Assembly: GCA_030264375.1 (NCBI GenBank)
Contig: JASCQW010000072.1
Span: 67,170,209-67,234,208, forward strand
From: Carcharhinus longimanus
Taxonomy: Eukaryota
Reading direction: 5' to 3'
DNA length: 64,000 nucleotides
The translations under genes and the position numbers were made by a program. Every line of letters starts with the position of its first letter. The stretch's first letter is position 1. Shown one piece after another: positions 10,318-59,865 of the stretch. Below the pieces are notes generated by a model. That model was not told the DNA's origin. It saw only the letters and a list, made by a program, of their open reading frames with translations, and did not search any database.

Positions 10318-10450
10318 GTAGGTGATTAGTGTGATTCTCATTTTTAATGTAACATTTTACTGTTTGCAACAAGAAGCACAGCTACTTAGAACTCTAATTC
10401 CCACATGCTTACAGCATTTTACCGAATGACATAATCACATTGTGTTTATA

Positions 10451-10613
10451 TAGAAACTGACACAGTCACTGTATGTTGTATTGAGACTAAGCTGGTCATT
10501 GTATATTAAACAGAGGCTGACACGGTCACTGCGTGTTATACAGGGGCTGACACGGTCACTGCGTGTTATACAGGGGCTGACACGGTCACTGCGTGTTATA
10601 CAGGGGCTGACAC
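10451..10613. repeat. 30-bp minisatellite
   Basis: CAGGGGCTGACACGGTCACTGCGTGTTATA x3 near-perfect (10511-10600) plus a partial unit and two degenerate upstream units. Confidence 0.9.
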
Positions 10614-12539
10614 AGTTTTTAATTATATTCACGATTGTGACCTCTGCATTGCACAGAGTGGGCAGATTCGAGTGAGAAGCTGCACTGAAAAATCTGTCAT
10701 GATCTAGAACAATTTTCCCACCAATTCAGCACTTTTAGGAGAATGACTCCCATCTTTTCTATACCTCTGCACTTCTCCCCTCCCCAATTTGTCTACATAA
10801 ATATTTGCTCTTCTATCTCCCTCTTTTATAGCATACTTGCAGCATATGATTGCCTCTGTTTTATTCTACAATTAAGTTTGTACAACTCATTTGATGATCC
10901 TTTGATTACATCATCCCTCCACATAGTTGTGGTTGTTTCTTTTAACAGTATAGCACACCCCTTCCTTAACCCCAGATTTTTTGTCTGAGAGTCATGTAAC
11001 AAGGAATATTGAGTTGCTATTCCTACCTTTCTTTCAGACATGGTTCAGTATGATATCATACTTCCCAGTGTCTATCTCTGCCCTGAATGTATCTGTCTTA
11101 TCCACTGGACTCCTTGCATTAAGTCTTTATCACTAATCACTAAACAATTCTTCACTGTCTCTTTTCTAGCCTTTGTTTTCCCTGCCTTTCATACTCACTA
11201 ATTTTCTAATTTTACTAATGTTCATTAATTGAGGACTGTGTAGCACATTGAGACAGAGATGATCACTGTTCAGTGATGACATGGCCACTGCACGTAATAT
11301 TTATGTAGAAACTGTTTGAATGCTTTGATTCTGAATCTCTCCAGAATATTTTACAAAGTTGAATATCACTCTTTTCTCACCTAGATAAAGCAATGATGCT
11401 CTATGGAGGATTGTAAGGATTGTATATGTTTATTGCTTTTTGATTTTTTTCATTTCCAAAAGAAGACTGAGCCCTTATTACTGAAACTTCCCAATTCTTA
11501 CTTGATGACAAGTATTCCACTTCAGTGTTCCCCTGGCTTTTAGTTACCAAAATGTAATCATCATGAACATCAGAGCATTTGTATGTTCCAGAATACTCCA
11601 GGGAAGGCTGCTTCAGATTGTGATGGCATCTAGTGAGTTGCAATTTCCTCCTGTTCCCGTGAAAGTTTGCAATTATTGTTGTTTGTAATTTCACCTTTCT
11701 TTGCTTGGAGCCTGTGCCAAATTTCAGAGATTTCCACAATGATGTTGGGTTCCATGGAACACTGGGATTTAAAAATGACATCAGCTGGATACTTTAAGAG
11801 CCGTGTGTTCTTAAAGTAAGACTTGTTAACGTTATCAGCCTGCTTCATTCAGAGGAATCAATTTCAAAATGCTAAGTTCAGGGTGAGACAGCATTTATTG
11901 TATGAAAATCTTCAACAACAAACACAGCTAGTGTTAAAGCTCATTTTAAATTCAGCAAGTTATGGTTGATGTGGTTAAACTCTTAAAAGGATTATTTGAG
12001 TGTGGCCGGCACTGTAGCTTTAATTAGAGTGTGCTAAAAGGACTTCTTGAACCTTTGGCTACTATATTTTTATTATGCCTCTGCAGCACTTTGGGATGTT
12101 CTTCTCAGTTAACAGCACGAGCTATCGCTGTGGTAAATACATAGCAGCTGTGAGCACATCACACTTGCAGTGTGCTGTTCAACTTGGGACTATAGGTGTT
12201 CTTGTCATACATATTGTAATTCTACCTCTCTCCGGTATAGAGTATATGTGTACAGTTTAAATGTGTGTACTGCAATTTCTCTTAACTTCTCCCAGGTATG
12301 CTGCATGTGTGAACATTTTATTGCCTCATGCCTCTCTTGGGTAGATAGTATTGTTGGGTTAGCTGATGCGGTAAACATACGGTAAACCTTTATTGAAGCT
12401 TAGTTTGAAAGGAATGCGTCAAAAATCAATACCACGTGTCTCAAAAATGTCAGGATAAATGGAAAATTATTACACAGTGATCTGAAGGAGATGTAGGAAG
12501 ATGGTTCACTACTACATGAGTATCCCAAGCAGGAACCAG

Positions 12540-14917: not shown

Positions 14918-15090
14918 AGATAAAGACAGATTACTGTGGATTCTGGAATCTGAAACAAAAACAGAAAATGCTGAAAAATCTCAGCAGATCTGACAGCATT
15001 TGTGGAGAGAGAATAGAACCAATGTTTCGTGTCTGGATCACAGTACCTCCACAGATGCTGCCAGACCTACTGAGATTTTCCAACATTTTT
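14918..15090. mobile_element. Penelope-derived inverted-arm element with 9-bp TSD
   Basis: Arms 14965-15007 and 15047-15089 are reverse complements; GTGATAAAA duplicated at 14909-14917 and 15091-15099. Confidence 0.7.
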
Positions 15091-15309
15091 GTGATAAAAC
15101 ATTTTTAAATTCAATATTAAGTTGATAGGGAGAAGGATGAGTCATAAGCCAAAGTTCCAAAGGTGGTTAAGGATAATCTTGGAAACCTGAGAGAGGGATT
15201 GACCGCAGCAAACTTTGAAGAGCTATTAGCTGATCAAATTGATTATCTGCAGTGGGAGATGTTGAAGAAAAGTATTTGAGAGAATATATGCCAGGAGGGT
15301 TCACTTCAG

Positions 15310-15777: not shown

Positions 15778-15989
15778 GTTTATTACAGAATACATAGTAA
15801 AACCATTACCATGGTGTACACACACTAATCCCTGCCCGGGACAGCTGTTCAGCAGGCCCAGTCCTGGGCCTGACTTATAAAAGGCTCAGGTAATGAATTA
15901 CAGCTGGACAGGCCACTTCCTGATACTAAAGGAACTCAGATTCAACAAGCCCCACAGTGATTCCCCATGGACCTCCTGAGGGTTATCAT
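15778..15989 (-). mobile_element. Solo LTR-like sequence
   Basis: Minus strand begins TGA.., contains TTTTATAA TATA-like box then AATAAA near the end; resembles Gypsy-type LTRs. Confidence 0.5.
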
Positions 15990-16323
15990 GAGGGCAAGAG
16001 TGCCGATTGTATAATAACCATGCATGGCAAACAAGGAAAATGCTATATAATACAAACTAAAGAACATAGCTATCCAAATGCAGAGAACAGTAGAGATCTT
16101 GAGAACAGGGAGAAATATAAAGAACAGCAAAGAAATTCAAAGAAAGTAGTTAAAGCTGCAAGAAGCAATATCAAGAATAATACTCAATGTTTTTACAAGT
16201 AAATTAATAAGAAGTGACTGACTAAAAGGAATATGAACCACTTAACACTCATGGGTGGTACTGTCATTGAAAATCAGGACATGCCACAATTTTTTATTCT
16301 TTCATTGGGCATCGTTGACGAAG

Positions 16324-16561
16324 TAAGAAGTCTAACAACAACAGGTTTATTTGGTAGTAAACACCACTAGCTTTCGGAACGCTGTTCCTTCGTCAGATGT
16401 GTGGGGAGTTCCACTAGCTTTCAGAACAGGTAATGAATTACAGCTGGACAGGCCACTGCCTTATACTAAAGTTTACTACCAAATAAACCTGTTGAACTTT
16501 AACCTGGTGTTGTGAGACTTCTTACTGTATTTACCCCAGTCCAACGCGGGCATCTCCACAT
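16324..16561. mobile_element. Penelope-derived inverted-arm element with hammerhead motif and 14-bp TSD
   Basis: Left arm TAAGAAGTCT..ACAGGTTTATTTGGTAGTAAAC vs right arm GTTTACTACCAAATAAACCTGTT..GAGACTTCTTA plus tail CCCCAGTCCAACGCGGGCATCTCCACA; TSD CATCGTTGACGAAG (16310-16323)/CATCGCTGACAAAG (16562-16575). Confidence 0.8.
16364..16405 (-). ncRNA. Minimal type I hammerhead ribozyme motif
   Basis: Minus strand CCACACAT CTGACGA A GGAAC-AGC-GTTCC GAAA GC TA GTGG: CUGANGA core, 5-bp stem II, GAAA, palindromic stem III, UH site, CCAC/GTGG stem I. Confidence 0.7.
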
Positions 16562-17320
16562 CATCGCTGACAAAGCCAGCATTTATTTATCTTCACTAAT
16601 TCCCTGAGGAGTTGGTGGTGAGCCAATGTCTTAAACTGCTGATGTTAAATAATCTCTTTTGTATAGGTCTTCACACTAAAGGATATGGCAGAGTTCCAGA
16701 GATATGAGGAAAATGAAAATTGAATCAAGTAGAGGAACTTGCTGGATTTAATGTCAGTAAAATATTGGTAAAGGAGAAAATAATGGCGATTGACAAATTC
16801 CCAGGAGCGAATGATTTCCACACCCAAAAATAAGCAAGAAAATTGTAGTTAATTTAGTTGTGATCGCTGGAAATCCTTTTGATTCTGGAATTCCCCTTTT
16901 GGATTAGAAATTGCTAGTGACACTCCATTAGTTAAAAATGGGAGAGAGAAACAGGAAACTATAGGCGTATAACTCTAACATTAGTTCTGGCAAAATCACT
17001 AGAATCTGTTATTAAGAACAGAGTGATGAACACTTAACAGAGAAGGCCAGCATGGGATTGTAAAGCATAAGTCATGTCTAACTAAAGTTGATTTTCTTTT
17101 ATGTGGAAATAAATAACATTGGTATATCAAGGAATGTTACTAATTCAGGCATTCAGTAAGATTCCACACAGATGATGGTTGGCAAAGATAAAGACATTTG
17201 GAATTGAAGGCAACCTATATGACATGGGTATAGAATGAGTCAGAAGATTGGAGACAGGATATACAGTCCATTGGCTAGATGTGCCAATCAATGTCCTCCA
17301 GCAAACTGTACTGGGACACT

Positions 17321-19209: not shown

Positions 19210-20690
19210 CCCTTTCTCTGGTAATTTTAATTGTTTGATGTTCTTCCCTCTCTTTTCACCTGTTGTGTTCTAATTATTTCTGCAATGCTATTTTTGTCTT
19301 CTACAGTGACGATAAACACAAAATATCTATTCAATTCATCTTCCAGTTCCATATTTTCCAGGATTATTTCCCATGACTCACTCACTGGAGGGCCATTTCA
19401 GTTACTCTTTTTTTCTTTCTTTGAACACCTGTAGAAACTCTTATTATCTGTTTTTATATTTATAGCTAGCTTTATCGTATGCTGTAATTTCTCGCTTTTT
19501 TTTTAGGTATTTCATCACTTTTTTTATATTCTGTCCAATCTTCTGACTTACTACTAATGTTGGCAGAATTGTACGCTTTTTCTTTCAATTTGATACTATC
19601 TTTAACTTCTGTTGGTAAACACAAGTAATACTTAGTCTTTCTTTCTCGCTGGAATATATCTGCTGAGTGTTATGAAATGTCTCCTTAAATGTCTTTTTGC
19701 TGCATCTGTGACTACATAACGCTTAACCTAATTTTAGAGTTCACTTTAGCTAACTCTGTCTTCATATGCTTATAATTAGAGTCATAGAATCCCTACAGTA
19801 CAGGAAGAGACTAGTTGGCCCATCAGGTCTGCACCTACACTCCAAAAGAGCATCCCACCCTCTATCCTATTCCTGTGACCCCACGTATTTAAAATGGTTA
19901 ATCCTTCTACACATCTTTGGACTGTGGGAGGAAACTGGAACACTCAGAGGAAGCACATGCTGAGACAAGAGAACGTGCAAACTCCACAAAGACAGTCACC
20001 CAAGGCCGGAATTGACCCCGGGTCCCTGGTGCTATGCTGCTGCAGTACCATCCACATTTAGATTACCTTTATTTAAATTTAAAACACTAATCTTAGTCCC
20101 ACTGCTCTCTCCCTCAAACTGATTGCAAGTCAATTATGTTATAATCACATGCCACCGAGGATGGCTTTTACTGTGAGGCCATTCATTAATCCTATCTCAT
20201 AATATACCAGTTGTAGACTAGCCTGCTCTCTGGTTGGCTCTCGTGCTGCTCTAAGAAATTGTCCTGAGACCTTGAGAGGTATGGACAGAGTAAATAGTGA
20301 GAAGCTATAAACTCATCTTCCAGGCTCCCTTGGTCAATTTGTTTTGTTCAAATCAATATGTAGATTAAAATCATATGTAATTATTGCATCTTTTTCAGGT
20401 CTCCATTATTTCATTCTATATACCCCATTCTACAATGTGACTACTGTTAGTGGGACTAGAAGCCTCTCATACAAGTGACTTCTTGCCTTTGCTATTTCAT
20501 ATCCCTACTCAAACAAATTTTACACCTTGATTTTTAGCACTGTCATTAACAGAGCTACCCCACCACTTTGTTCTTGCTTCTTGTCTTTCGAATTGTCATG
20601 TATCTTTGAATAGTCAGTTACCAGCGTTTGGCATTACAGGGACATGACAATCATATCATGCATATTTGGTTCCATTTGAGCTGATAATCT
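19210..20690 (-). mobile_element. Old CR1 ORF2 5'/central fragments
   Basis: Typical CR1 minus-strand segments (CTACAGTGACGATAAACACAAAATATCTATTCAATTCATC, GTAGATTAAAATC, ACAGAGCTACCCCACC), interrupted by a SINE. Confidence 0.65.
19775..20055 (-). mobile_element. V-SINE (HE1-like)
   Basis: CATAGAATCCCTACAGT tail; CACATCTTTGGACTGTGGGAGGAAACTGG; GGAATTGACCCCGGGTCCCTGG B-box region. Confidence 0.85.
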
Positions 20691-20699
20691 ATCTATTTT

Positions 20700-21305
20700 G
20701 TACAGAACAACAGAATTTTTACAGTGCAGAAGGAGGCCATTCAGCCCATCAAACCTGCTCTGGCTCTCCGAAAGAGCATTCTACTTAGTCCCACTCCTCT
20801 GCCTTATCCCTGTACGTCCTTTCTTTTCAGATAGCAACCCTTTTGAACAACTCAACCAAACCTGCCCCCACCAGCCTCTGAGGAAGTTCATTCCAGATTC
20901 CAACCATAAAACCTTTCCTCACATCACTATTACTCCTTTTGCCAATTACTTTCCATTTGTGTGCTTTGATACTTGATGCTGTCTTGACTGCAAATAGCAT
21001 CTCACTATTTACTCTGTCCATACCTCTCAAGGTCTTGAATACCTCTACAAAGTCACCTCTCACCCTTCTTTTTCTCCAAGTGAAACAGTCTCAGCTGCTC
21101 CAATCTTTCCTCATAATTACAGTTCTTCATCCCTGGAATTATTGTAGTAAGTATCCTCTATTCTTCCAATGCCTTCACATCATTGCTCAAATATGGTATC
21201 CAGAACTGGACACAGAACTCCAGATGAAACCTAACTAGTTTCTTATACAGTTCAACATGTACTCTTGTACTCAGTGCCCTTTTAATGATGCCTAAGATGC
21301 AATAT
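20700..21305 (-). mobile_element. CR1 LINE 3' end
   Basis: ORF 20827-21063 RGDFVEVFKTLRGMDRVNSEMLF...WNELP. Confidence 0.85.
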
Positions 21306-27519: not shown

Positions 27520-28050
27520 GGGCAGCACAATGATACAGTGGTTAGCACTGCTGCCTCACTGTGCCAGGGATCTAGATTTGATTCCCGGCTTGGGTTACTA
27601 TCTATGCAGAGTCTGCACATAGTCCCCCTGTCCAGGAGCTCTGGTTTCTTCTGAAAGCTGCTGGTTAGGTGCATCAGTCATGCAAAATTCTCCCTCGTAC
27701 CCAAACAGGTGCCAGAATGTGGCGTTTCGAGAATTTTCAGTTTTGTGAAAACTTTGTTTTAAAGTTTAAAGTCTATTAGTGTCACACGTAGGCTTACATT
27801 AACACTACAATGAAGTTACTGTGAAAATCCTTTGGTAGCCACACTCCAGCGCTGTTCGGGTACACTGACGGAGAATTTAGCATAGCCAATTCATCTGACC
27901 AGCATGTCTTTAAGATTGTGTGAGGAAACTGGAGCACCCAGATGAAATCCATGCAGACGTGGGGAGAGTGTGTAGACTCTGCACAATGTAAATGTAAGCT
28001 TACTTGTGACACTAATAAATAAACTTTCAAGCTTTAAAGTTTAAACTTTT
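27520..28050. mobile_element. V-SINE (+) interrupted by an inverted V-SINE (-, ~27760-27985)
   Basis: + head GGGCAGCACAATGATACAGTGGTTAGCACTGCTGCCTCAC; minus copy in the middle; + tail TGTAAGCTTACTTGTGACACTAATAAATAAACTTT resumes at ~27990. Confidence 0.8.
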
Positions 28051-28617: not shown

Positions 28618-28717
28618 GAGTGTGCTCTGAGCGCGCTGGTTGAGGGTTGAGTGTGCACTGAGCGCGCTGGTTGCGGGTTGAGTGTGCACTGAGCGCGCTG
28701 GTTGCGGGTTGAGTGTG
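28618..28717. repeat. 31-bp CpG-rich minisatellite
   Basis: GAGTGTGCACTGAGCGCGCTGGTTGCGGGTT, ~3.2 copies. Confidence 0.9.
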
Positions 28718-33334: not shown

Positions 33335-36300
33335 TGTTACGGAATGCCATGTTGAGTACTGAATGTTCTTATAAAACCTTTTCTCCTGTATAATTGTTCT
33401 ACTGGCTTAAAGTTTATTTATGAATCACAAGTACACTGCAATGAAGTTACTGTGAAAATCCCCTGGCTTTTGTTGAGAGTTCTGAGCATGTGCAGGTTTT
33501 GGAAGCTTTTCAGTCTGCAGAGAGTGTTCTGCAAGCGAGGCCTATTCTACAATTACTGTTGATTAGTTATTGCTGTTTGTAAACTTTGTTATTTTAGTAT
33601 TTAAAGAAGATGGTTCTTTTGACAATGTATTCGACCGCCTTTTATTGTGAATTTAAGTTATCATCTCTTCGGTGATAAGGAGAAAGTGGCAAGGAAAGAA
33701 AACAAAGTTAGTCCAATGTTCAGCATGGCAACATGAGATTGCATACAGTGATTAGCTAGTTTTCATCATCGGCTTATCTGATGGAATTTCGAGTTAGCAG
33801 CACCATTACTATGTTTGGGGCTGTCAATGGGTTTAACAAGAGAAGTGAAAACTGGGCTGAATACGTGGAAAGGGTGAAAAATTTCTTTTTAGCAAATAGA
33901 ATAGAAGATGAGGTGAAGCAATGCTGGATTCTCGTGAGTGTGTGGGGAGGAGACTTATGAGAAATGAGAAATCTGGTCATGCCACAGAAACCAGGGGAAA
34001 TGTCATTTGCAGATTTAGTTGCTCTGCTCCAGAATCACCATAACCTGCAGTTGTTGGGGAAAGCCACAGTGAGTTTTAAGAAGGCTTTGGAAATCTTGCA
34101 GCTCATGGCAATGGCTGCCAGTAATACTATTCAGAAAGCTAATGTTGATGCCCAGGCTGCATCAAATAAAGAAGTAGCAATCAATAAGGTGAAAGTAGTG
34201 GAGTGTTTTAGGTATGGTGAGCCACACTGTGTAAATCATTGCAAATTTATGGATGTTATTTTGTCACTGGTGCAACAAGAAGGGACATTTGGCGAAGAGG
34301 TGCAAGGCCATGAAGAGCAAGGCAAAGGTGAGCAAGAAAATTTAAGTTTGAAGAAGCCTCAATCAGTTACACATCATCTGGACAGCTCAGAGCAGGCAGA
34401 GGAGCAAGCTTACAGCATGTTTAATGTGAATGAGGCACAAGCAGAGCCTATTTTTACTACAGCAGTGGTTGATGGTAAACAAATCAAGATGGAGATGGAC
34501 ACAGGATGTAATTAATTAATGAAGAGACCTACAAGTCAACTTGGGACACTAGCTGAGGGCCGGTCCTCACTCTGGATATACACGGGAGACTGCATACTTT
34601 TGCTTGGGTGTTGGAAATCCGTACTATGTATAATCGTCAAGAAGCAAGGGCACACCTCCTTGTGATCAAAGGGTAGGGGCTGAGTTTTCTAAGGCATGAC
34701 TGGCCCAGCAAAATTCCATTGAACTGGGTCTTGATCAAGCATACAAAGAGGGTGTTGTTAAGAAGTATCCGGATCTGTTCAAGGTTGGATTGGATACATT
34801 GCATAGTATTACCGTGAAATTATATGTAAATCCTCAGGTTACTCTGTGGTTTTTCAAGCACTACAGTGTGCCATTAGAACAAAAGTGGAATAGGAGTGGC
34901 TGCAAAAGCTTGGAATCATTGAGCCTATTTGGTTTTCTTATTGGACAACTCCAATCATTCCTGTCCTTAAAAATTATGGTACAGTCCACACATTTGGTGA
35001 CTACAAACTCACTATTAAACAGGTTTCCAAGTTAGATGCTTATCCATTATTTAGAGTGGAAGATTTGTTTTCAACTCTTGCAAGGAGTCAGAATGTTTTC
35101 AAACTTGGACATGAGCCAGGTATATCAATAACTCTTACTAGAGGAAGACTTGAAGCAGTACGTGACCATCAACGCGCACAAGGAGTTTTTTGATGTATCC
35201 TCCAGTCTAGCGATTTTTCAGAGGACAGTGGACAACCTTTTGCATGACACCTTAATTATAGGGAAGAGCGAAGAAGAGTACCTCAGCAATCTGGATCAAG
35301 GTTTTCAGAGGCAGGACTGCGTCTGAAGAAAAGCAAGTACAAAGTGTAGAGTATCTTGGAAGGGAAAATTGGACCAATTAAGGAAGCTCCAGAGCCCAGG
35401 AATGTGTTCAAGCTCAAGTCATTTTTGGGTTTACTAAATGATTATGGAAAGTTTTTGCCAGACCTGACAACACTGTATCTACTTCTGCACAAAGAAACTA
35501 AATGGAAGTGGGGAGTCAGCACAAAAGAAGGCTTTCAAAGATGTAAAAGTGGTGTTGCAATTGCCTATTCTGCTAGTCCATTTTGACCTAAACAGAGAAC
35601 CTATTCTGTCATGCAAAGCCTCGCCTTCTTGTATGGGAGTGGTACTTTCTCATTTAATGAGAAACAGTCTGGAAAAAACCATCAGTTTTAAATCTAGGAC
35701 ACTGACAAAGGCTTAAAAAAAATGTTCGCAATTGGACAAAGAAGATCTAGCTATTTTTTTTCAATGAAAGATTCCATCCGTACCTCTAGGTTGTTTGTTC
35801 ACCACAAGTCATTGAATTTCTCAGTCGGTCGAAATATATTCTTCCTATGGCATCAGCAAGAATACAATCAGTGCTAGGTACTTACATTGTCAGCTTATCA
35901 TGTACAGAGCAGGGAAAGACCACACAAATGTGGATGCATTGAGTCATCTCTCTTTACTGGATTTGCCATCCAAAATATTGTGTCCTCCTTAGACCATTTT
36001 CTTCATTGGTTGTTCTCAAGTCATGGATAAAATTCATGAGCCACATCCAGCTGCTTCTAGAATTAAAAATCTAGGTAGGTCATATGCTGGTGGCCTAATA
36101 TAGATCTGGGCTTGGAGACCAAACAAGATGAAAACCTGTTGGACAATGTCAAATAAACTAGCGCCACTTCATCCTTGGCAATGGCCTGATTGTCCATGGT
36201 ACAGACTTCATGTGGACTTTGTGGGAAATGTCATGAACTGCATGTTTTTAATTGGCGTAGATGCGCACTCAAAAACGAAATGTCATAAGTAATATTACAG

Positions 36301-39700: not shown

Positions 39701-40825
39701 AAAAACATTAAGGGCTCTTTGATTTACTCTATTGGTGTATTCCCTATGTGCAAGTGGGAGACAGACAAATAGGGAGTCAGAAATACTTAAAAAGAGACAG
39801 ACAAACAGGAAGAGCAAAAGGTAGTTAGAAAGTACCTATTCATACAGATTGATTCTCAGTCAGAGAAAAGACATAAATATACGTCATAGAAAAGGCAGAT
39901 NNNNNNNNNNAATGGATAGATATAATGGAGGATATGGTAAATGTATATATAGGTGCAGACAGAATGAACTTTGGCAGATGTAAAATTTGACACCAATTTA
40001 TATATTTTTGAAAATGAACTCACACTTGAGTTAATGAGCAGAGCTAACGTATGACAGTGAAGATGTTTCATGACCATCTTTGAGAAGAGCCTTCAGGATG
40101 AGTGAGGATGTACTGCAGCAGCTTGTATGCTGCCAGATTGAACAGAAATAGAACAAAAGATCCAAGAGGCCACAGTGCCTTTGCCTGTAAGCAGCACTCT
40201 CACCACTGACAACTATCACCCAATGATTAAAGTATTATGGTTAGAGTAAGCATTCCAGTGTGTTTGATGCCAGAAGTGAGACCGTCAAGCTGATTACTTT
40301 TGTCAGATATAGGTCCCATATTTCCACATAACCATTGAAATATTTATTGAGCATACAGCTATATAAAACACAGCATGAGACTGCTTTCTGTTGTAAAGGA
40401 TGTTATTGAATGGTCACATTTCTCTCAACCAATCAAATCACTTGTGATTACCTGTAACTGTTTGGTACTCTTGTCAAGTCCTAAAGGAATTGGACCAGTG
40501 CCGTTTTTCTCTTTGATGCCTCTTTTATTTCCAGATAGCTTTCAAAACCCTGGATATAACCGGGAATTGAATGAGCAAACCAAGATTAAAGCATCATCAC
40601 GGAGACCCTGGTCATATCCATTCAGCTTAGCTCAAATACACTGGAATGCTCATTCTAACCAAATCATTTTAATCGCTGGATGACAGTTATCGGTGCTGAT
40701 TACAGGCAAAGGGATTTTGACCCCTATAAGAGTTTCACTCTGTTTCTGTTCAATCCTGTCAACATAGTTCAGGCCACTGCACTATATTTAATGAGTGGCT
40801 ATGTTAGATTCTTCATCTCAGGGAC

Positions 40826-44554: not shown

Positions 44555-44685
44555 GAAGGAAAATACTGCAGATTCTGGAAGTAAAAGCAGAAAGTGCTGA
44601 AAATACCCAGCAGGTCAGGCAGCATCTGTAGAGAGAGAAACAGAATTAATGTTTTTGATGAGGGATCATAGAACTGTAATGTTGG
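44555..44685. mobile_element. Penelope-derived terminal fragment
   Basis: AAATACTGCAGATTCTGGAA..CAGAAAGTGCTGAAAATACCCAGCAGGTCAGGCAGCATCTGTAGAGAGAGAAACAG; same family as 14918 and 47525. Confidence 0.6.
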
Positions 44686-46524
44686 CCCAAATCTTCTGAT
44701 CAGTGTGGGGACCACTGTGTCCAATGCTGATCAGATAGGAGAGGTAGTCAGGTCGGGTTGGAAGGTAATTGCTGGAGGTCAGGAAGGTTAGCTTCCTGTA
44801 CTGGTATTGGTGCTTGTGGCGGTAAGTTCTACAGTCACCCAGGAGTTAGACTAGGAAATTTTTGTCTAATGCTTCCTAAGTAACTATTTGGGTAAGTAAA
44901 TCAGATTCACCTGAAGCCTGCAACGGAGTCAGTCTGTTTTTGGAGAATCCAGGGGAGGAGGGAAATTGCCCATTGAAACTTCTAGTTGAAACCTCCAAGG
45001 CAATTCCCACAGAAATCAGTGCATCAGAGTTCCATCGGGATCTAATGTGTATCTTGAGCATAGTTTCTGATGACTTGGAGACTGGAAGACCTGGGCTGTT
45101 GTTCAATCTGTTTCTCTCTCCATAAATGTCACCTCACCTGCTGCATATTTGCAGAATTTTCTGTTTTTATTACTGACCCAATTAGTTGGGCAGAATGGCC
45201 TGTTTTTGTGTTGTAATTTCAGTGTTTTTTTAAATGTGTCATACCTAGACTTCTGCAATGGAGAGCTGAAAGAGAGGGTGACTTCCATCCAATCCCCCCA
45301 CTTCAGAATAATGTGGTCTTTTAACAGTGGAATGTAGCATTGTCAAGGTCCTCGACGGCTGTAGAGTTTGAATCAGTGGATCATACGCAAGATGTAGCAA
45401 TTAGATTTCATTATTTTGCTAACAAATGTTATCTTTTTTGAGGTAAGTATCAGAGTCTGAGTTAAAAACAGCCATTATTTTGCCACACCATGCCTAGCGT
45501 TTGTTTGGCCACCACCTCAGAGAGATCTGACTATCCAATTTGGAAAACAGCCACTACTGCACTCTGTGAGACTACTCATTCTGCTTCTAATCCAGGGCCT
45601 CTCCTGACATGACATAGCCTCTAGTAGGAACTCTGCAATGTGTGCAGGGAATCTGCCAGGAACATACCATCAACCTTAGTCAGATCCTCTATAAACTGCA
45701 GAGTTGATCAAACTAAGAGGGTCATGGCTGCCCTCTGAGGTAAAGCAAACGGAATTAAAACAAAGAGAGGTGATTAAAGTTTTGGCGGTTTAAAAATTAC
45801 ATTTCTAATCTCATTCTGAAGATGTTGATTATTTTTACAATGTAATGGAAATGTCAGGAAGATCATTAGCAAGGTAGCAATACTGCTTTAACTTTTCACC
45901 TCTGAAGATTTGTTGTGCTAAATCTTTATTTATCCCATATTTCTAACCAGTTCAAGGTGATTACCTGTGTTTGGTCTCATTCAGTCAGTGTGTAATGCTG
46001 CATCTAGTTCACTGTCAGTGATGAGGATGATGATTTTTGTTAAAGTAAGTAAAAGAATCGCACTTCCAGTGGTTGGTGACTCAGTGAAGAAGAAGTGTTA
46101 TTATATGAATGGAGAGATTAACTTTTTTTTGTGCACAAGAGTGCTGCTGGGATGTGTTATGACCAGAAATAGTGAAGGAAGCAGATTCATGGTTACTTGT
46201 AAAAGGGAAGGGCATAAATACCTGAAAGAAAGTTCAAAGAATTTGGAAAAAATTGCAGGCTAATGGGATTAAACGGAAAGTATCCTTCAGAGGGAGGATA
46301 GGTGCAGGGAACTGGTTTGTGCCCCTGTGCTGCAAAGCTGTATGACCCTCAGACTTTCTGCTGTCGTAGTGTTCCCCTTTCACTACTGACAAAGTTACAG
46401 CTACACATCACCAGAGAGTCTGAGGAAATTTGGAGGCAGTTTCTGAAGCAGTGGTGCTCCCACTTCGGGGCAGTGAACACCACTGTACTGACAAGCCATC
46501 ACTAGCCCCTCTGCTGAGATCTCA

Positions 46525-47070: not shown

Positions 47071-47524
47071 TGAAAAAAGATCATTTATTTTTGAATTAAC
47101 AGCAGGTATAAATGTCATTAAACTGTTTTGGGGAGCCTTTAACCCAATCTTGGAGAATTGGCAAGGATTAACTGCCTTCTGCTGTGTTGCAGCAACTACG
47201 CTGAAGATTCCGCAGTAATTGCTTGCTGTAAATTATACCCATTGCCATGGAGACGGTGTCGTATGCAGTGAGGCGTGAAATGCTTTAGAGCTGAAAATGG
47301 GAAAGATTCATGGTCCTGTCATGTTTTATTTTTTCATGTGTGGCACCTCTGAAAGGCTGATGAAATACCGTATTTTCCTGAATAATTGCAGGTCCTAAAC
47401 CACCTCAATTGGCGTATGTTATTGTAATGAAAAAGTTTTGGTCCAGATGGTGAGAGGTTTCCCCATTGCTCCATGACATTTCTGGCTCTTTAATTGATGG
47501 GCCAACTGACAGTCGATTGCAGTT

Positions 47525-47718
47525 AATAAAAACAGAAAGTTCTAGAAAGCATCAATGAAGAGGGAGAAACGGTCATAGCTCTGAAGAACTATCATATGGA
47601 CTTGAAACATTAACTTTGCTTCTCACCCCACAGGTACTGCCAAATCTCTTGAGATTTTCCAGCATCTTCTGTTTTAATTTCAGATTTCCAGTATCCACAG
47701 TATTTTGGTCTTATTTTA
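47525..47718. mobile_element. Penelope-derived inverted-arm element with degenerate hammerhead
   Basis: Short arm AAAACAGAAAGTTCTAGAAA vs TTTCCAGCATCTTCTGTTTT; CTGAAGA...GAAACATTA core at 47581-47612. Confidence 0.6.
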
Positions 47719-47934
47719 GTTGATTGAGCTTGCTGTGGAATGGGATCTCTCCTTTCTCTCTTGGAAGACAGATGGTTTCAGATACCTGACGCCCTAACAT
47801 ACTTTGTCACAAAGATGCAGTTGAATTCCATGAAGTTTTCAGCAATGAGTGTCTCCTCTCCCTTCCGCCTATCAATGAGCAGCCATAATAACCGTGGAAC
47901 AGGTCTTCGATCACGTCTGTTCTAAGTAATCCAT

Positions 47935-48244
47935 TAAAAAGTCTCACAACACCAGGTTAAAGTCCAACAGGTTTATTTGGTCAGGTAAGTGGGAATTTAC
48001 AGCAAGCAGTTACCTGAGGAATCTTCAGCATAGTTGCTGCAACACAGCAGAAGGCAGTCAATCCTTGCCAATTCTCTAAGAGTGGGTTAAAGGCTCCCAA
48101 AAACAGAACTCCCACTTACCTGATAAAAGAGCAGCACTCCAAAAGTGCTTTTGCTACCCACTAAACCTGTTGGACTGTAACCTGGTGTTGTGAGACTTCT
48201 TACTGTGTTTACCCCAGTCCAACACCGGCATCTCCACATCATGA
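47935..48244. mobile_element. Penelope-derived inverted-arm element with perfect 13-bp TSD
   Basis: Same family as 16324; TSD CTAAGTAATCCAT at 47922-47934 and 48245-48257; arms GTCTCACAACACCAGGTTAAAGTCCAACAGGTTTA / TAAACCTGTTGGACTGTAACCTGGTGTTGTGAGAC; decayed hammerhead CTGATAAAAGAGCAGCACTCCAAAAG at 48120-48145. Confidence 0.85.
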
Positions 48245-49429
48245 CTAAGTAATCCATACCAGACTTGTCTAAATTTCTGAAAGATGGCACTGAATGATCA
48301 TCCTCATCAAATGACATGCAATACAAGCATGAAAAATCTTTTTATTAGTGCAGAGGTTGCTATCCTGTGGTTGAATAAAAGCCCACTTTTGGACAACAAA
48401 TCTGACCCAAACAGTGGTGGGATTTAGGTGTGCCTGGTTCAGTACTCATATTTAACTTTAAATTTATTTATTATTATCGCAATTAGGCTTATTTTATGAG
48501 CAAAATATTGATAAAAATATTCCAGTAGATGAGGACTGTCCTATCGACTTGTAGACTTTCGTCCTATTATTCTGGACTGAGCGTGCAATGTTAGTAACCC
48601 ACTGTGCCACCCAGATTACACTGATACTTTCTTGTTCTCAATGTGTGTTACAAGACATATAAATTGTAGCTGTATTGTACCTATAAGGTCCTTTAAGTAA
48701 TCTCACAGATGACATTAAAAGGGACTCTGAGTTCAGTTGACATGTATATCTTAAGCCAACCATATTTCACAAGTTACAGCACACAAGCTTATAATTTCAC
48801 AGCATCATGGATATTTTTGCAGCCCATGAGGTGACGACACTCCTCTCGAATATAAATGAGATCCCATGTTGTTAAATGAAGATGAATTGTGGACTTATTT
48901 AAACCTCAGCCTCTCTGTGCCCAGAAAATAAATAAACCATCCAAAGATAGAGCTACATCTTTTCTCACGTACCCAATTAGACCACTACTGATCATCCCTG
49001 GGCATGTTCCCCACCAATATTGTTGATTACCAACATATGTACGTGTCTGGAAAAACAATCACCAAACACGCACAAATGCCAGAAACAATTAATGTGCCTC
49101 ACCAAGCTATTAAGTAATGTCATTATCTAATCAGGGTGGCATTGACATAGGCAGTCCTTGTCAGAAACAACAGGATATTATTGGCATGCCTTTGTGTACA
49201 TGTGTTGGAAGCAAATTCGTTATAGAAAATTAGAAACATACCTAGCTTAAAATATAGTACATTAATGATTGCAGAGACTTAGCAATAAACTGGTTATGAA
49301 TGTGTGTTAAGTAGTTCAATCTTTGGGATCTACAAAGGTAAGGGAAATAGAGAAAGAGAAAGGGATACCAATACTGATAAAATGCCCCCTACAGTAAAAC
49401 AAAAAATTATAATATGAATGATCAGGAAG

Positions 49430-53770: not shown

Positions 53771-54361
53771 CTTGTAAAAGCTAAGGACAAAAAAAAATTC
53801 ATTTACAGAAAGCGTTACAAAAAAATCAACATGAATGAAATTTTGACTTTTATCACAAGGGGAGCAAAATAAAAAGTGAGGAAGGATCCTTCAGTTGTAC
53901 CCTGCCTGGCATGAACCATTATGGAGTTCTGTGTTTTGTTTTGTAAGTACATAGGAAAGATTTATCAGCCTTGGAGGGGGTATAGTGCATGATACAAGTA
54001 TTTAAAGACGAGATATCAGGCAAACCTGCATCAAAATGGAAAATGGCACATTTTTAACATACAACAGTGTTTGTTGTTCTTGATCCCTCTTACTCACCCT
54101 GTTCCCTCCCTCATGCCAGCATTGCCCACCCCACTCCTCAGATCCAATACTGCCCTGCTCAACCCCTCACTCCTGGCCTCTTGCTGCATCAGACAATCAG
54201 TGTAGCTAGGTGCTAGAATAGAGTGAGAGGGGGTTTGCAAGGGGCCGGGACGCAATGCATGTGCTGGCAGATGGAGTGGGTGCTGAGTGGGCATGAATAA
54301 TGTTTCTGTGCAGCAACAGGAATTATAATGAAATAGGAAAGGCATGCAGATCAGAACATCA

Positions 54362-54658
54362 GGGTGCCTCAGTGACACGGTCGTTAGCATTGCTGCCTCA
54401 CAGTGTCAGGGATCCAGGTTTGATTGCCGGCTTGAGTCACTGTCTGCGTGGAGTTTGCACATTCTCCCTGTGTCTGCGTAAGTTTTCTCCAGGTTCTCCA
54501 GTTTCCCCCCACAATCCAAAGATATGCAGGTTAAGTGAGTTGGCCATGCAAAATTCTCCCTCAGTGTACCCGAACAGGTGCTGGAGTGTGACGATTAGGG
54601 GATTTTCACAGTAATTTCATTGCAGTGCTACTTGTGACTAATAAATAAACTTTACTTT
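54362..54658 (+). mobile_element. V-SINE (full length)
   Basis: tRNA-like head, V-domain, tail GACTAATAAATAAACTTTACTTT. Confidence 0.85.
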
Positions 54659-57679: not shown

Positions 57680-58030
57680 AGCATAGAATCCCTATAGTGC
57701 TATTTAACCCACCAGGTTTGCATCGACTCTCCAACAGTGCCACTTACCCAGGCCCATCCCCCACCCTATCCTTGTAACCCCACTCATTTACCATGGCTAA
57801 CCCCCCTAACCTTAACATCTTTGGATACTGAGGAAAATTTAGCATGGCCAATCGTCTAACCCACACATCTTTGGAGTGTGGGAGGAAACCAGAGCACCCA
57901 GAGGAAGCCCACGCAGACAAGGGGAGAAAGTGCAAACTCCACACTGACAGTTACCCAAGCTGGAATCAAATCCAGATCTCTGGCGTTGTGAGGTAGCAGT
58001 GCTAGCCACTGGGCCTCTGTGCCACCATGG
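57680..58030 (-). mobile_element. V-SINE (HE1-like), full length
   Basis: CATAGAATCCCTATAGTGC tail; CACATCTTTGGAGTGTGGGAGGAAACC; GTGAGGTAGCAGTGCTAGCCACTG head. Confidence 0.85.
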
Positions 58031-59194: not shown

Positions 59195-59865
59195 GAACTT
59201 GAGCATTACTGAAAAGAGAGACATTTTTTGTTGAAACTTTTCACCTTGCATTCATCAGGTAAGAATACAAATGTCAGGCAAAATAATAAATTTATACTGT
59301 ACGAAAAGAGAGTGTTGCTTGGTTGGCAAATGGAATTTGATTGATAGAGACGTTGCCATGGTGAGTGCACCAGTTGATGGTTACCAACAGTGAGCTACCA
59401 AGCATTGTTTGAAATTTAAGTCAGGCAGCTTGACACTGATTAGTCAAGACATTGCCCTGAAGACTGAACCAGCGAATGGCTGTCACTTTTTTTTTGTAGC
59501 TGAAATAGGCATTATGTGTGTACACATTATTTCTGTCTGCAAAGACCAGGGCCCTATGTATTAACATACGTACCTCCCAGTACACACAAATACAAACCCG
59601 ACTGACAATCTTAAATTGGTTGTCAGCTTGGTCAATAGTGCTTAGCAGTTAACTGTCAGTCAGCATCAATTGTTGCACTCTATGGCAATGTCTCTATCAA
59701 TCAGATTATACTTTCCAGTTAATCAACACTCTTCTCAAATATAAATTTGTTGTTTCCCCTGACATTGGTATTCTGGTGAACTGTCCTGATGAGTTCACTA
59801 GAATACCTGATGAGCTGATGAAAAGCTTCAACATAAAATCTCTTTGTTTCAGTAATACTCAAATT
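59195..59865. mobile_element. Penelope-like element 3' end with inverted pseudo-LTR arms and hammerhead motifs
   Basis: ~200-bp imperfect inverted arms (GAGCATTACTGAAA.. / ..TTTCAGTAATACTC); minus-strand remnant LGGTYVNT*GPGLCRQK resembles the PLE GIY-YIG C-terminus (LEATYI..QGPVLCRQKE); CTGATGA..GAAA cores at 59233-59258 (-) and 59786-59824 (+). Confidence 0.75.

Follow-up and report, generated by a model that had tools for sequence, protein, structure and literature searches.

Between its two inverted arms, the insertion at positions 47922-48257 holds a segment that also occurs in the DNA upstream of it, which raises the question of how chromosomal DNA came to lie inside a mobile element beside its own source. 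The 64,000-nucleotide stretch of Carcharhinus longimanus DNA that was analysed (the window) is rich in repeats, with a GC content of ~39%, a CpG observed/expected ratio of 0.23 and 13 N-runs. Self-comparison of the window identified two copies of the family: the element bounded by TSDs at 47922-47934 and 48245-48257, here called E1, and a second copy at 16310-16575, called E2. No N-run falls inside either locus. Both are solo remnants of ~250-310 bp, neither long enough for an ORF, and no RT or GIY-YIG ORF was recognised among the 52 window ORFs of at least 110 aa that were read by eye, 4 of which were also scanned against Pfam.

E1 contains an inverted copy of its own left flank

The E1 locus is made up of the following features.

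47123..47234, plus strand: donor 1, window-unique DNA copied into E1; its end lies 688 nt upstream of the left TSD
47922..47934, plus strand: E1 left TSD, 13 bp, 13/13 identical to the right copy
47935..47997, minus strand: E1 left arm, an inverted pLTR remnant without tail; its last 4 nt overlap the cargo
47994..48106, minus strand: E1 cargo, an inverted copy of donor 1 with 7 substitutions and 1 indel
48107..48244, plus strand: E1 right arm, a sense pLTR remnant with tail and no poly(A)
48245..48257, plus strand: E1 right TSD, 13/13 identical to the left copy

The initial annotation had described 47994-48106 as the reverse complement of 47123-47234, and its coordinates, orientation and count of differences all proved right. 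The match was recovered by blastn at E 6.7e-41, with 92.9% identity over 113 columns, and donor 1 has no further match in the window better than E 0.2. When the cargo was aligned locally, it scored 174 against its own left 3-kb flank and no higher than 24 in any of the 16 other 3-kb regions compared. The perfect 13-bp TSD was likewise confirmed; its rough chance probability is 3e-6 with an offset of ±5 nt allowed. An inverted-repeat search showed that the two arms are real, and they differ at 5 of 63 positions. The left arm has an internal deletion of 33 nt that takes out most of the hammerhead, and it is missing the tail of ~40 nt (48203-48244) carried by the right arm. A degenerate minimal hammerhead lies in the right arm at about 48120-48148, with core G residues lost, and is predicted to be inactive. 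We also observed that an older head-to-head repeat copy, E0 (47525-47712), sits between donor 1 and E1.

Since the cargo is placed inside the insertion, it is the derived sequence and the donor is the source, as had been proposed. The loss of two donor CpGs from the copy had further been taken to mean that the donor is constrained, and possibly regulatory. Both CpGs are indeed gone from the cargo, but only one disappeared by a C>T transition, the other being a G>T change beside the indel. The suggestion of constraint rested on these two CpGs and is not supported: the surroundings of donor 1 (47100-47299) contain 5 CpGs, and at least as many are present in 26 of the 293 gap-free 200-bp windows. 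The cargo is best explained as a repair scar.

E2 carries a different local cargo at the same place

The features of the E2 locus are as follows.

15887..15931, plus strand: donor 2, window-unique DNA copied into E2; its end lies 379 nt upstream of the left TSD
16310..16323, plus strand: E2 left TSD, 14 bp, 12/14 identical to the right copy
16324..16410, minus strand: E2 left arm, inverted, without tail, with a 15-nt internal deletion
16368..16396, minus strand: minimal type-I hammerhead motif, from a descriptor scan using criteria given in the available text of PMC4209133
16411..16427, minus strand: E2 self re-copy, 17 nt from the element's own 16364-16380, 16/17 identical
16427..16471, plus strand: E2 cargo, a direct copy of donor 2, 43/45 identical
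16472..16561, plus strand: E2 right arm, 5'-truncated below the hammerhead, with a tail of ~38-40 nt
16562..16575, plus strand: E2 right TSD, 12/14 identical to the left copy

The right arms of E2 and E1 are identical at 84 of 92 positions, and the 12/14 TSD of E2 has a rough chance probability of 6e-4. Its cargo scored 76 against its own left flank and at most 24 in 15 other 3-kb regions; donor 2 has 0 CpGs. The 17-nt self re-copy is a further template switch. In the left arm of E2, 48 nt of element sequence (16363-16410) have no counterpart in its right arm.

The order of parts is the same in E1 and E2, namely TSD, inverted tail-less pLTR remnant, local cargo, sense tailed pLTR remnant and TSD. 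Local cargo is present in both of the two family copies in the window and lies exactly between the arms. The two cargos are unrelated, each inter-arm spacer matching its own left flank alone, and neither is present in the other family copy. Both donors lie on the side of the tail-less arm, a bias that means little at n=2. We considered whether the cargo could be part of the element consensus and rejected this because the second family member carries a different local cargo, in agreement with the earlier reading of the 113-bp segment.

Both insertions resemble Penelope-like elements

To establish what kind of element these copies belong to, we compared their ends and their hammerheads. The left arms of E1 and E2 have their outward ends at one consensus position (±1 nt), and the right arms reach about 38-42 nt beyond this common end. 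Inner ends at 48107 (E1 right arm), 47993-47997 (E1 left arm) and 16410 (E2 left arm) correspond to one element position within ~4 nt. Three of the four arms thus stop at a shared inner point, which places the cargo at what would be the cDNA ends. The tail-less arm, not the tailed one, has the larger internal deletion in both elements (33 nt in E1 and 15 nt in E2).

The hammerhead of E2 has a CUGANGA core, an extra nucleotide, a 5-bp stem II, GAAA, a palindromic stem-III remnant and a UH site. The descriptor scan of the window gave one other match, at 45816, with an AT-rich, wobble-dependent stem. No Rfam family reached its gathering threshold in the window, where only chance matches with E values up to 5 were seen around E1 and E2, and folding of the hammerhead regions was not significant (z from -0.04 to -1.74). 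The AT-rich target preference of EN+ PLEs was looked for in the TSDs, where G+C accounts for 4/13 in E1 and 7/14 in E2, in a window with GC about 0.39.

Three structural marks of EN+ PLEs were found, that is, inverted pLTR remnants within a TSD, a one-sided 30-40-bp tail and a minimal type-I hammerhead. A one-sided tail of 30-40 bp is described for PLE insertions (PMC8557442) and has been traced to two internal RT start sites (PMC11167929), and dual minimal hammerheads have been described 100-700 bp apart on opposite strands (PMC4209133). In the available text of these reports and of PMC3846280, EN+ PLEs (Penelope/Poseidon, Neptune) resemble E1 and E2 in having an inverted 5'-truncated copy by the 5' end, a one-ended 30-40-bp tail, a TSD and a minimal hammerhead. 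E1 and E2 differ from them in having no ORF and in that host DNA copied from nearby fills the junction, in place of a palindrome or overlap. Judged from sequence, the best explanation is that a single family of Penelope-like retrotransposons gave rise to both of these short insertions. The proposal of a Penelope-like hammerhead element is thus upheld, with the correction that the hammerhead of E1 is degenerate and the intact minimal motif is that of E2. A MITE or other non-autonomous DNA transposon was rejected, as the repeat fails to reach the right terminus by ~40 nt and E1 and E2 have unrelated interiors.

A protein search with the open antisense frame of the E1 right arm, confined to longer proteins, gave 1 match among 13 candidates. 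The C-terminal 22 residues of this ENA protein correspond to the antisense frame of the right arm in both elements (19/22 for E1). Its N-terminus is unrelated to the element and has no Pfam domain, although it looks LINE-like. At the level of protein, the match suggests one more copy that shares this tail end but lies in another flank. As it ends before the hammerhead, it carries no information on sequence 5' of the arm.

Junctions and timing of the cargo

The match to donor 1 ends exactly at 48106, the right junction of E1, and unrearranged element sequence 5' of 48107 occurs in none of the window copies. The initial annotation had five bases shared with the element end here, a candidate overlap that is not confirmed but would be in keeping with repeats of this kind. 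The overlap visible in the window is that of the E1 left junction (47994-47997), which shares 3 of 4 bases with the donor and has an interrupted extension; each of the two E2 junctions shows an overlap of 1 nt, where a microhomology of 2-6 nt would be typical of templated insertions. In a rough duplex scan, which did not honour the terminal-pair constraint, the E1 left junction ranked 4 of 89 eligible sites within 1 kb and 23 of 251 within 3 kb. Neither end of the E2 donor appeared among sites having two terminal pairs. Ranking of priming sites by duplex energy gives weak support for E1 and none for E2. As is expected of a templated insertion, the cargos were copied from near the break, the distance between donor and TSD being 688 nt in E1 and 379 nt in E2.

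The perfect TSD had also been read as showing that arms and cargo arrived in one event. This conclusion does not follow: the TSD would be unchanged if something were inserted between the arms afterwards, and divergence does not tell the two timings apart either. The E1 arms differ at 5 of 63 positions and its cargo and donor at 7 of 112 (Fisher p 0.76); for E2 the values are 1 of 39 and 2 of 45 (Fisher p 1.0, run with 1/38). These similar divergences would fit a single event or a repair soon after it, the clocks being too coarse to separate the two.

Other inverted pairs and an arm-free local copy

As a control, we examined the spacers of other inverted pairs in the window.

47525-47712: E0, inverted pair with a centre of 25 nt
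14923-15097: E4, inverted pair with a centre of 16 nt and a possible 9-bp TSD
44556-45172: E5, inverted pair; spacer 44671-45106 (~440 nt) with no window match
59196-59865: E3, a third inverted pair with arms 75-83% alike; spacer 59405-59638 (234 nt) with no window match, no clear TSD
40126-40267 and 40632-40766: old inverted pair, 71.5% alike over 144 columns and single-copy in the window
40268-40631: spacer of the 40126-40766 pair, 364 nt, no window match

None of the five spacers in these older pairs (E0, E3, E4, E5 and 40126-40766) matched its own 3-kb flanks, in a control whose sensitivity falls with age and in which some spacers may be element sequence. The spacers of E3, E5 and the 40126-40766 pair scored 20-28 against their 3-kb flanks, where the background maximum is 26-28. 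The idea that the family generates local duplications as a rule is strengthened by E2 as a second case (2/2), but it is held back by the sample of two and by the five older pairs.

E0, E4 and E5 belong to another, older family, whose palindromic repeats stand head to head and have just one arm extended, by ~30 nt; a degenerate hammerhead-like core lies at 47581, inside E0. In E3, hammerhead-like cores lie on opposite strands, at 59258 (minus) and 59786 (plus), the latter partly tandem-duplicated.

A local copy was also found without element arms. Positions 20267-20308 are an inverted copy of 20994-21035, 41/42 identical and 685 nt apart, the donor being 71% alike to one dispersed relative. By its sequence, this copy looks like a plain templated insertion. 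The presence of an arm-free local copy at a similar distance points to host repair. The initial annotation had the nascent strand switch template onto nearby chromosomal DNA during integration; copying from nearby is supported, but, given the arm-free copy, the element's own enzyme is not required for it.

How the cargo may have been copied

From the observed anatomy of E1 and E2, we infer the cutting, the priming, the polymerase and the order of events. We lean towards dual-primed reverse transcription, followed by templated-insertion end-joining that bridged the cDNA ends with flank DNA, a reading that we hold with slightly more confidence than doubt. The element endonuclease would make a 13-14-nt staggered cut. 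The element RNA would then be reverse-transcribed from both target 3' ends, with one start including the tail and the other tail-less, leaving two cDNA flaps of the same polarity that could not anneal together. One flap would prime on exposed flank 0.4-0.8 kb off and copy 45-113 nt before the ends were joined; in E2, this step would include the extra 17-nt re-copy of the element. The anole PLE protein is described as cutting and extending both target strands in vitro (PMC11167929). The copying itself was most likely carried out by host templated-insertion end-joining, presumably with a polymerase of the Pol theta / MMBIR type.

In templated insertions, annealing in cis is reported to give inverted copies and annealing in trans direct ones (PMC13596132). 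With the top strand of the left flank as template, the inverted cargo of E1 would correspond to the left flap folding back in cis, and the direct cargo of E2 to the right flap annealing in trans. This route would explain both cargos but is not unique, as other routes fit E1. E2 is not a plain snap-back of its right arm, because the left arm has 48 nt absent there, unless the right arm was later shortened.

The cargo could instead have come later, an order of events that we consider unlikely. In that case, a head-to-head perfect or near-perfect palindrome would have inserted, its hairpin or cruciform would have been cut at the centre, and the break would have been repaired with a local template; on this reading, interrupted palindromes would survive and assemble better, so that cargo-bearing copies are enriched among those visible. 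The TSD is blind to such subsequent events, the internal deletions in both left arms (33 and 15 nt) break symmetry, and the inner sequence of 48 nt is missing from the E2 right arm as resection would leave it. If a perfect palindrome were cut at its centre, the E1 arms would share one end position as well, and the arm-free copy at 20267-20308 suggests that ordinary repair makes such copies here. Set against this, the cargo-donor divergence is not detectably below that between the arms, a comparison of low power; both inner ends of E1 are kept, which would require repair without resection; and the 17-nt re-copy of E2 lies right at the shared inner end point.

That same end point, with which the junctions coincide, and the E2 overlaps of just 1 nt would suit an account to which we give little credence, in which the element RT made the cargo by jumping, in the manner of the R2 RT, from the RNA 5' end to displaced DNA or nascent RNA close by, a step that would take little homology or none. 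The 17-nt re-copy would resemble a jump back to element RNA, and a plus-strand template fits both cargos. Template jumps and host-DNA capture between pLTRs have been proposed for rotifer PLEs (PMC3846280), and template jumping has been shown for R2 (PMC11371274). An end-to-end jump, on the other hand, needs a template end at each donor boundary, where none is evident; no transcript or host gene was identified over the donors in the ORF list, which is not a gene annotation; and a local copy without arms is present in the window. Very improbable, in our view, is an artefact or coincidence, whether a misassembly or a cargo that is a dispersed repeat or an element part also found nearby. Gaps in the assembly (13 N-runs), the difficulty of assembling palindromes and a donor uniqueness established for the window alone speak for it, but the cargos differ from their donors by 7% and 4%, which misassembly does not produce. 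They are also unrelated, each matching its own flank alone and absent from the other copy, and the two loci are free of N-runs.

Dual-primed reverse transcription closed by host end-joining is favored by the two local cargos in two copies, the shared inner ends, the fixed outer ends and the similar divergences. Points against it are the sample of two, the weak microhomology, the five older pairs without local cargo and donors beyond a 100-bp radius. That local capture is routine in this Penelope family, with double-primed cDNA ends habitually bridged by a copy of the tail-less-side flank 0.4-0.8 kb off, is a tentative proposal about which our doubts prevail.

Relation to known systems

Several parts of this arrangement have precedents. 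In Adineta vaga, unrelated host sequence lies between solo pLTRs inside a TSD, and pLTR spacers of 0.9-1.5 kb were ascribed to host-DNA capture, for which template jumps were proposed (PMC3846280). The unrelated host sequence between solo pLTRs and the surrounding TSD are shared with E1 and E2. As described in the available text of that report, the Adineta vaga cargo, which can reach the size of a gene, is found mostly between direct pLTRs and was moved in trans, and an origin in the element's own flank is not reported; in E1 and E2, the cargo is 45-113 nt long, lies between head-to-head arms and has its source 0.4-0.8 kb off.

Three L1 insertions have been described with DNA templated near the integration site (PMC11702581), and R2 cDNA ends prime on nearby rDNA at 5' junctions, "less frequently" (PMC11371274). 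The nearby-templated DNA of L1 and the "snap-back" 5' junctions of R2 resemble E1 and E2 in that an insertion intermediate primes on adjacent genomic DNA before closure. As far as the available text of these two reports goes, such junctions are a minority class and involve one cDNA end, whereas E1 and E2 show the cargo in 2/2 copies and between two cDNA arms. L1 twin priming is alike in that both target ends prime, an inverted arm forms, the TSD is kept and end-joining occurs at the inversion junction (PMC11702581). Its pieces have essentially no overlap, and poly(A) is present on one of them, whereas the arms of E1 and E2 cover the same terminal region and have no poly(A). A twin-priming L1 product was rejected on these two grounds, although the insertions may work like twin priming.

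Pol theta and MMBIR junctions share with E1 and E2 short local copies, inverted or direct, with several switches per junction and apparently weak microhomology (PMC13596132, PMC8421209). They differ in that the templates of E1 and E2 lie 0.4-0.8 kb off, as against within about 100 bp, and in the E2 overlap of just 1 nt; the 100-bp radius is that described, and searched, for yeast MMB-TIs in the available text of PMC8421209.

How PLE integration is completed and how the inverted-repeat ends form are stated as unresolved in the available text of PMC11167929 and PMC8557442. No published report of locally templated cargo at PLE head-to-head junctions was found in a literature search that covered few subscription journals. 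The available text of bioRxiv 2024.08.27.596794 and PMC2912911 holds nothing on local capture, and the two supplements of PMC4209133 that were searched hold, in the parts available, no shark hammerhead entry. The 15-nt family motif has no literal occurrence in the literature searched, and no title or abstract start among the matches listed for shark and Penelope literature concerns this family. Captured host sequence between pLTRs has already been published, and so has DNA templated from close by at L1 and R2 junctions, as the available text of PMC3846280, PMC11702581 and PMC11371274 shows. Local capture at PLE junctions, for which the literature covered gave no precedent, combines a PLE architecture and a class of repair scar that are each known.

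Should the spacers between the arms commonly be local copies, the genomic copies would amount to a natural experiment on PLE integration that can be read from sequence alone. From each copy one could read which strand and side were used and how far resection or template search extended. The side and strand on which donors lie, how far away they are and what microhomology they have would serve to distinguish dual priming from snap-back, as well as host repair from RT jumping. The family would also be a systematic source of short local duplications overlooked by repeat annotation. If the pattern is not general, E1 and E2 would be two ordinary templated-insertion scars, as at L1 and R2 junctions.

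Other repeats in the window

A dispersed repeat occurs in an inverted arrangement at 27528-28042, with relatives at ~2169-2356, 19907-20055, 54360-54654 and 57827-58029; within it lies a 56-bp inverted pair (27749-27804 and 27987-28042). Decayed reading frames extend over 33961-35035, where the Pfam matches for 33961-34515 are all sub-threshold; these frames look like gag/protease of an LTR retrotransposon. Short tandem duplications were observed at 10438-10616 and 28618-28717, with periods of about 59 and 62 nt.
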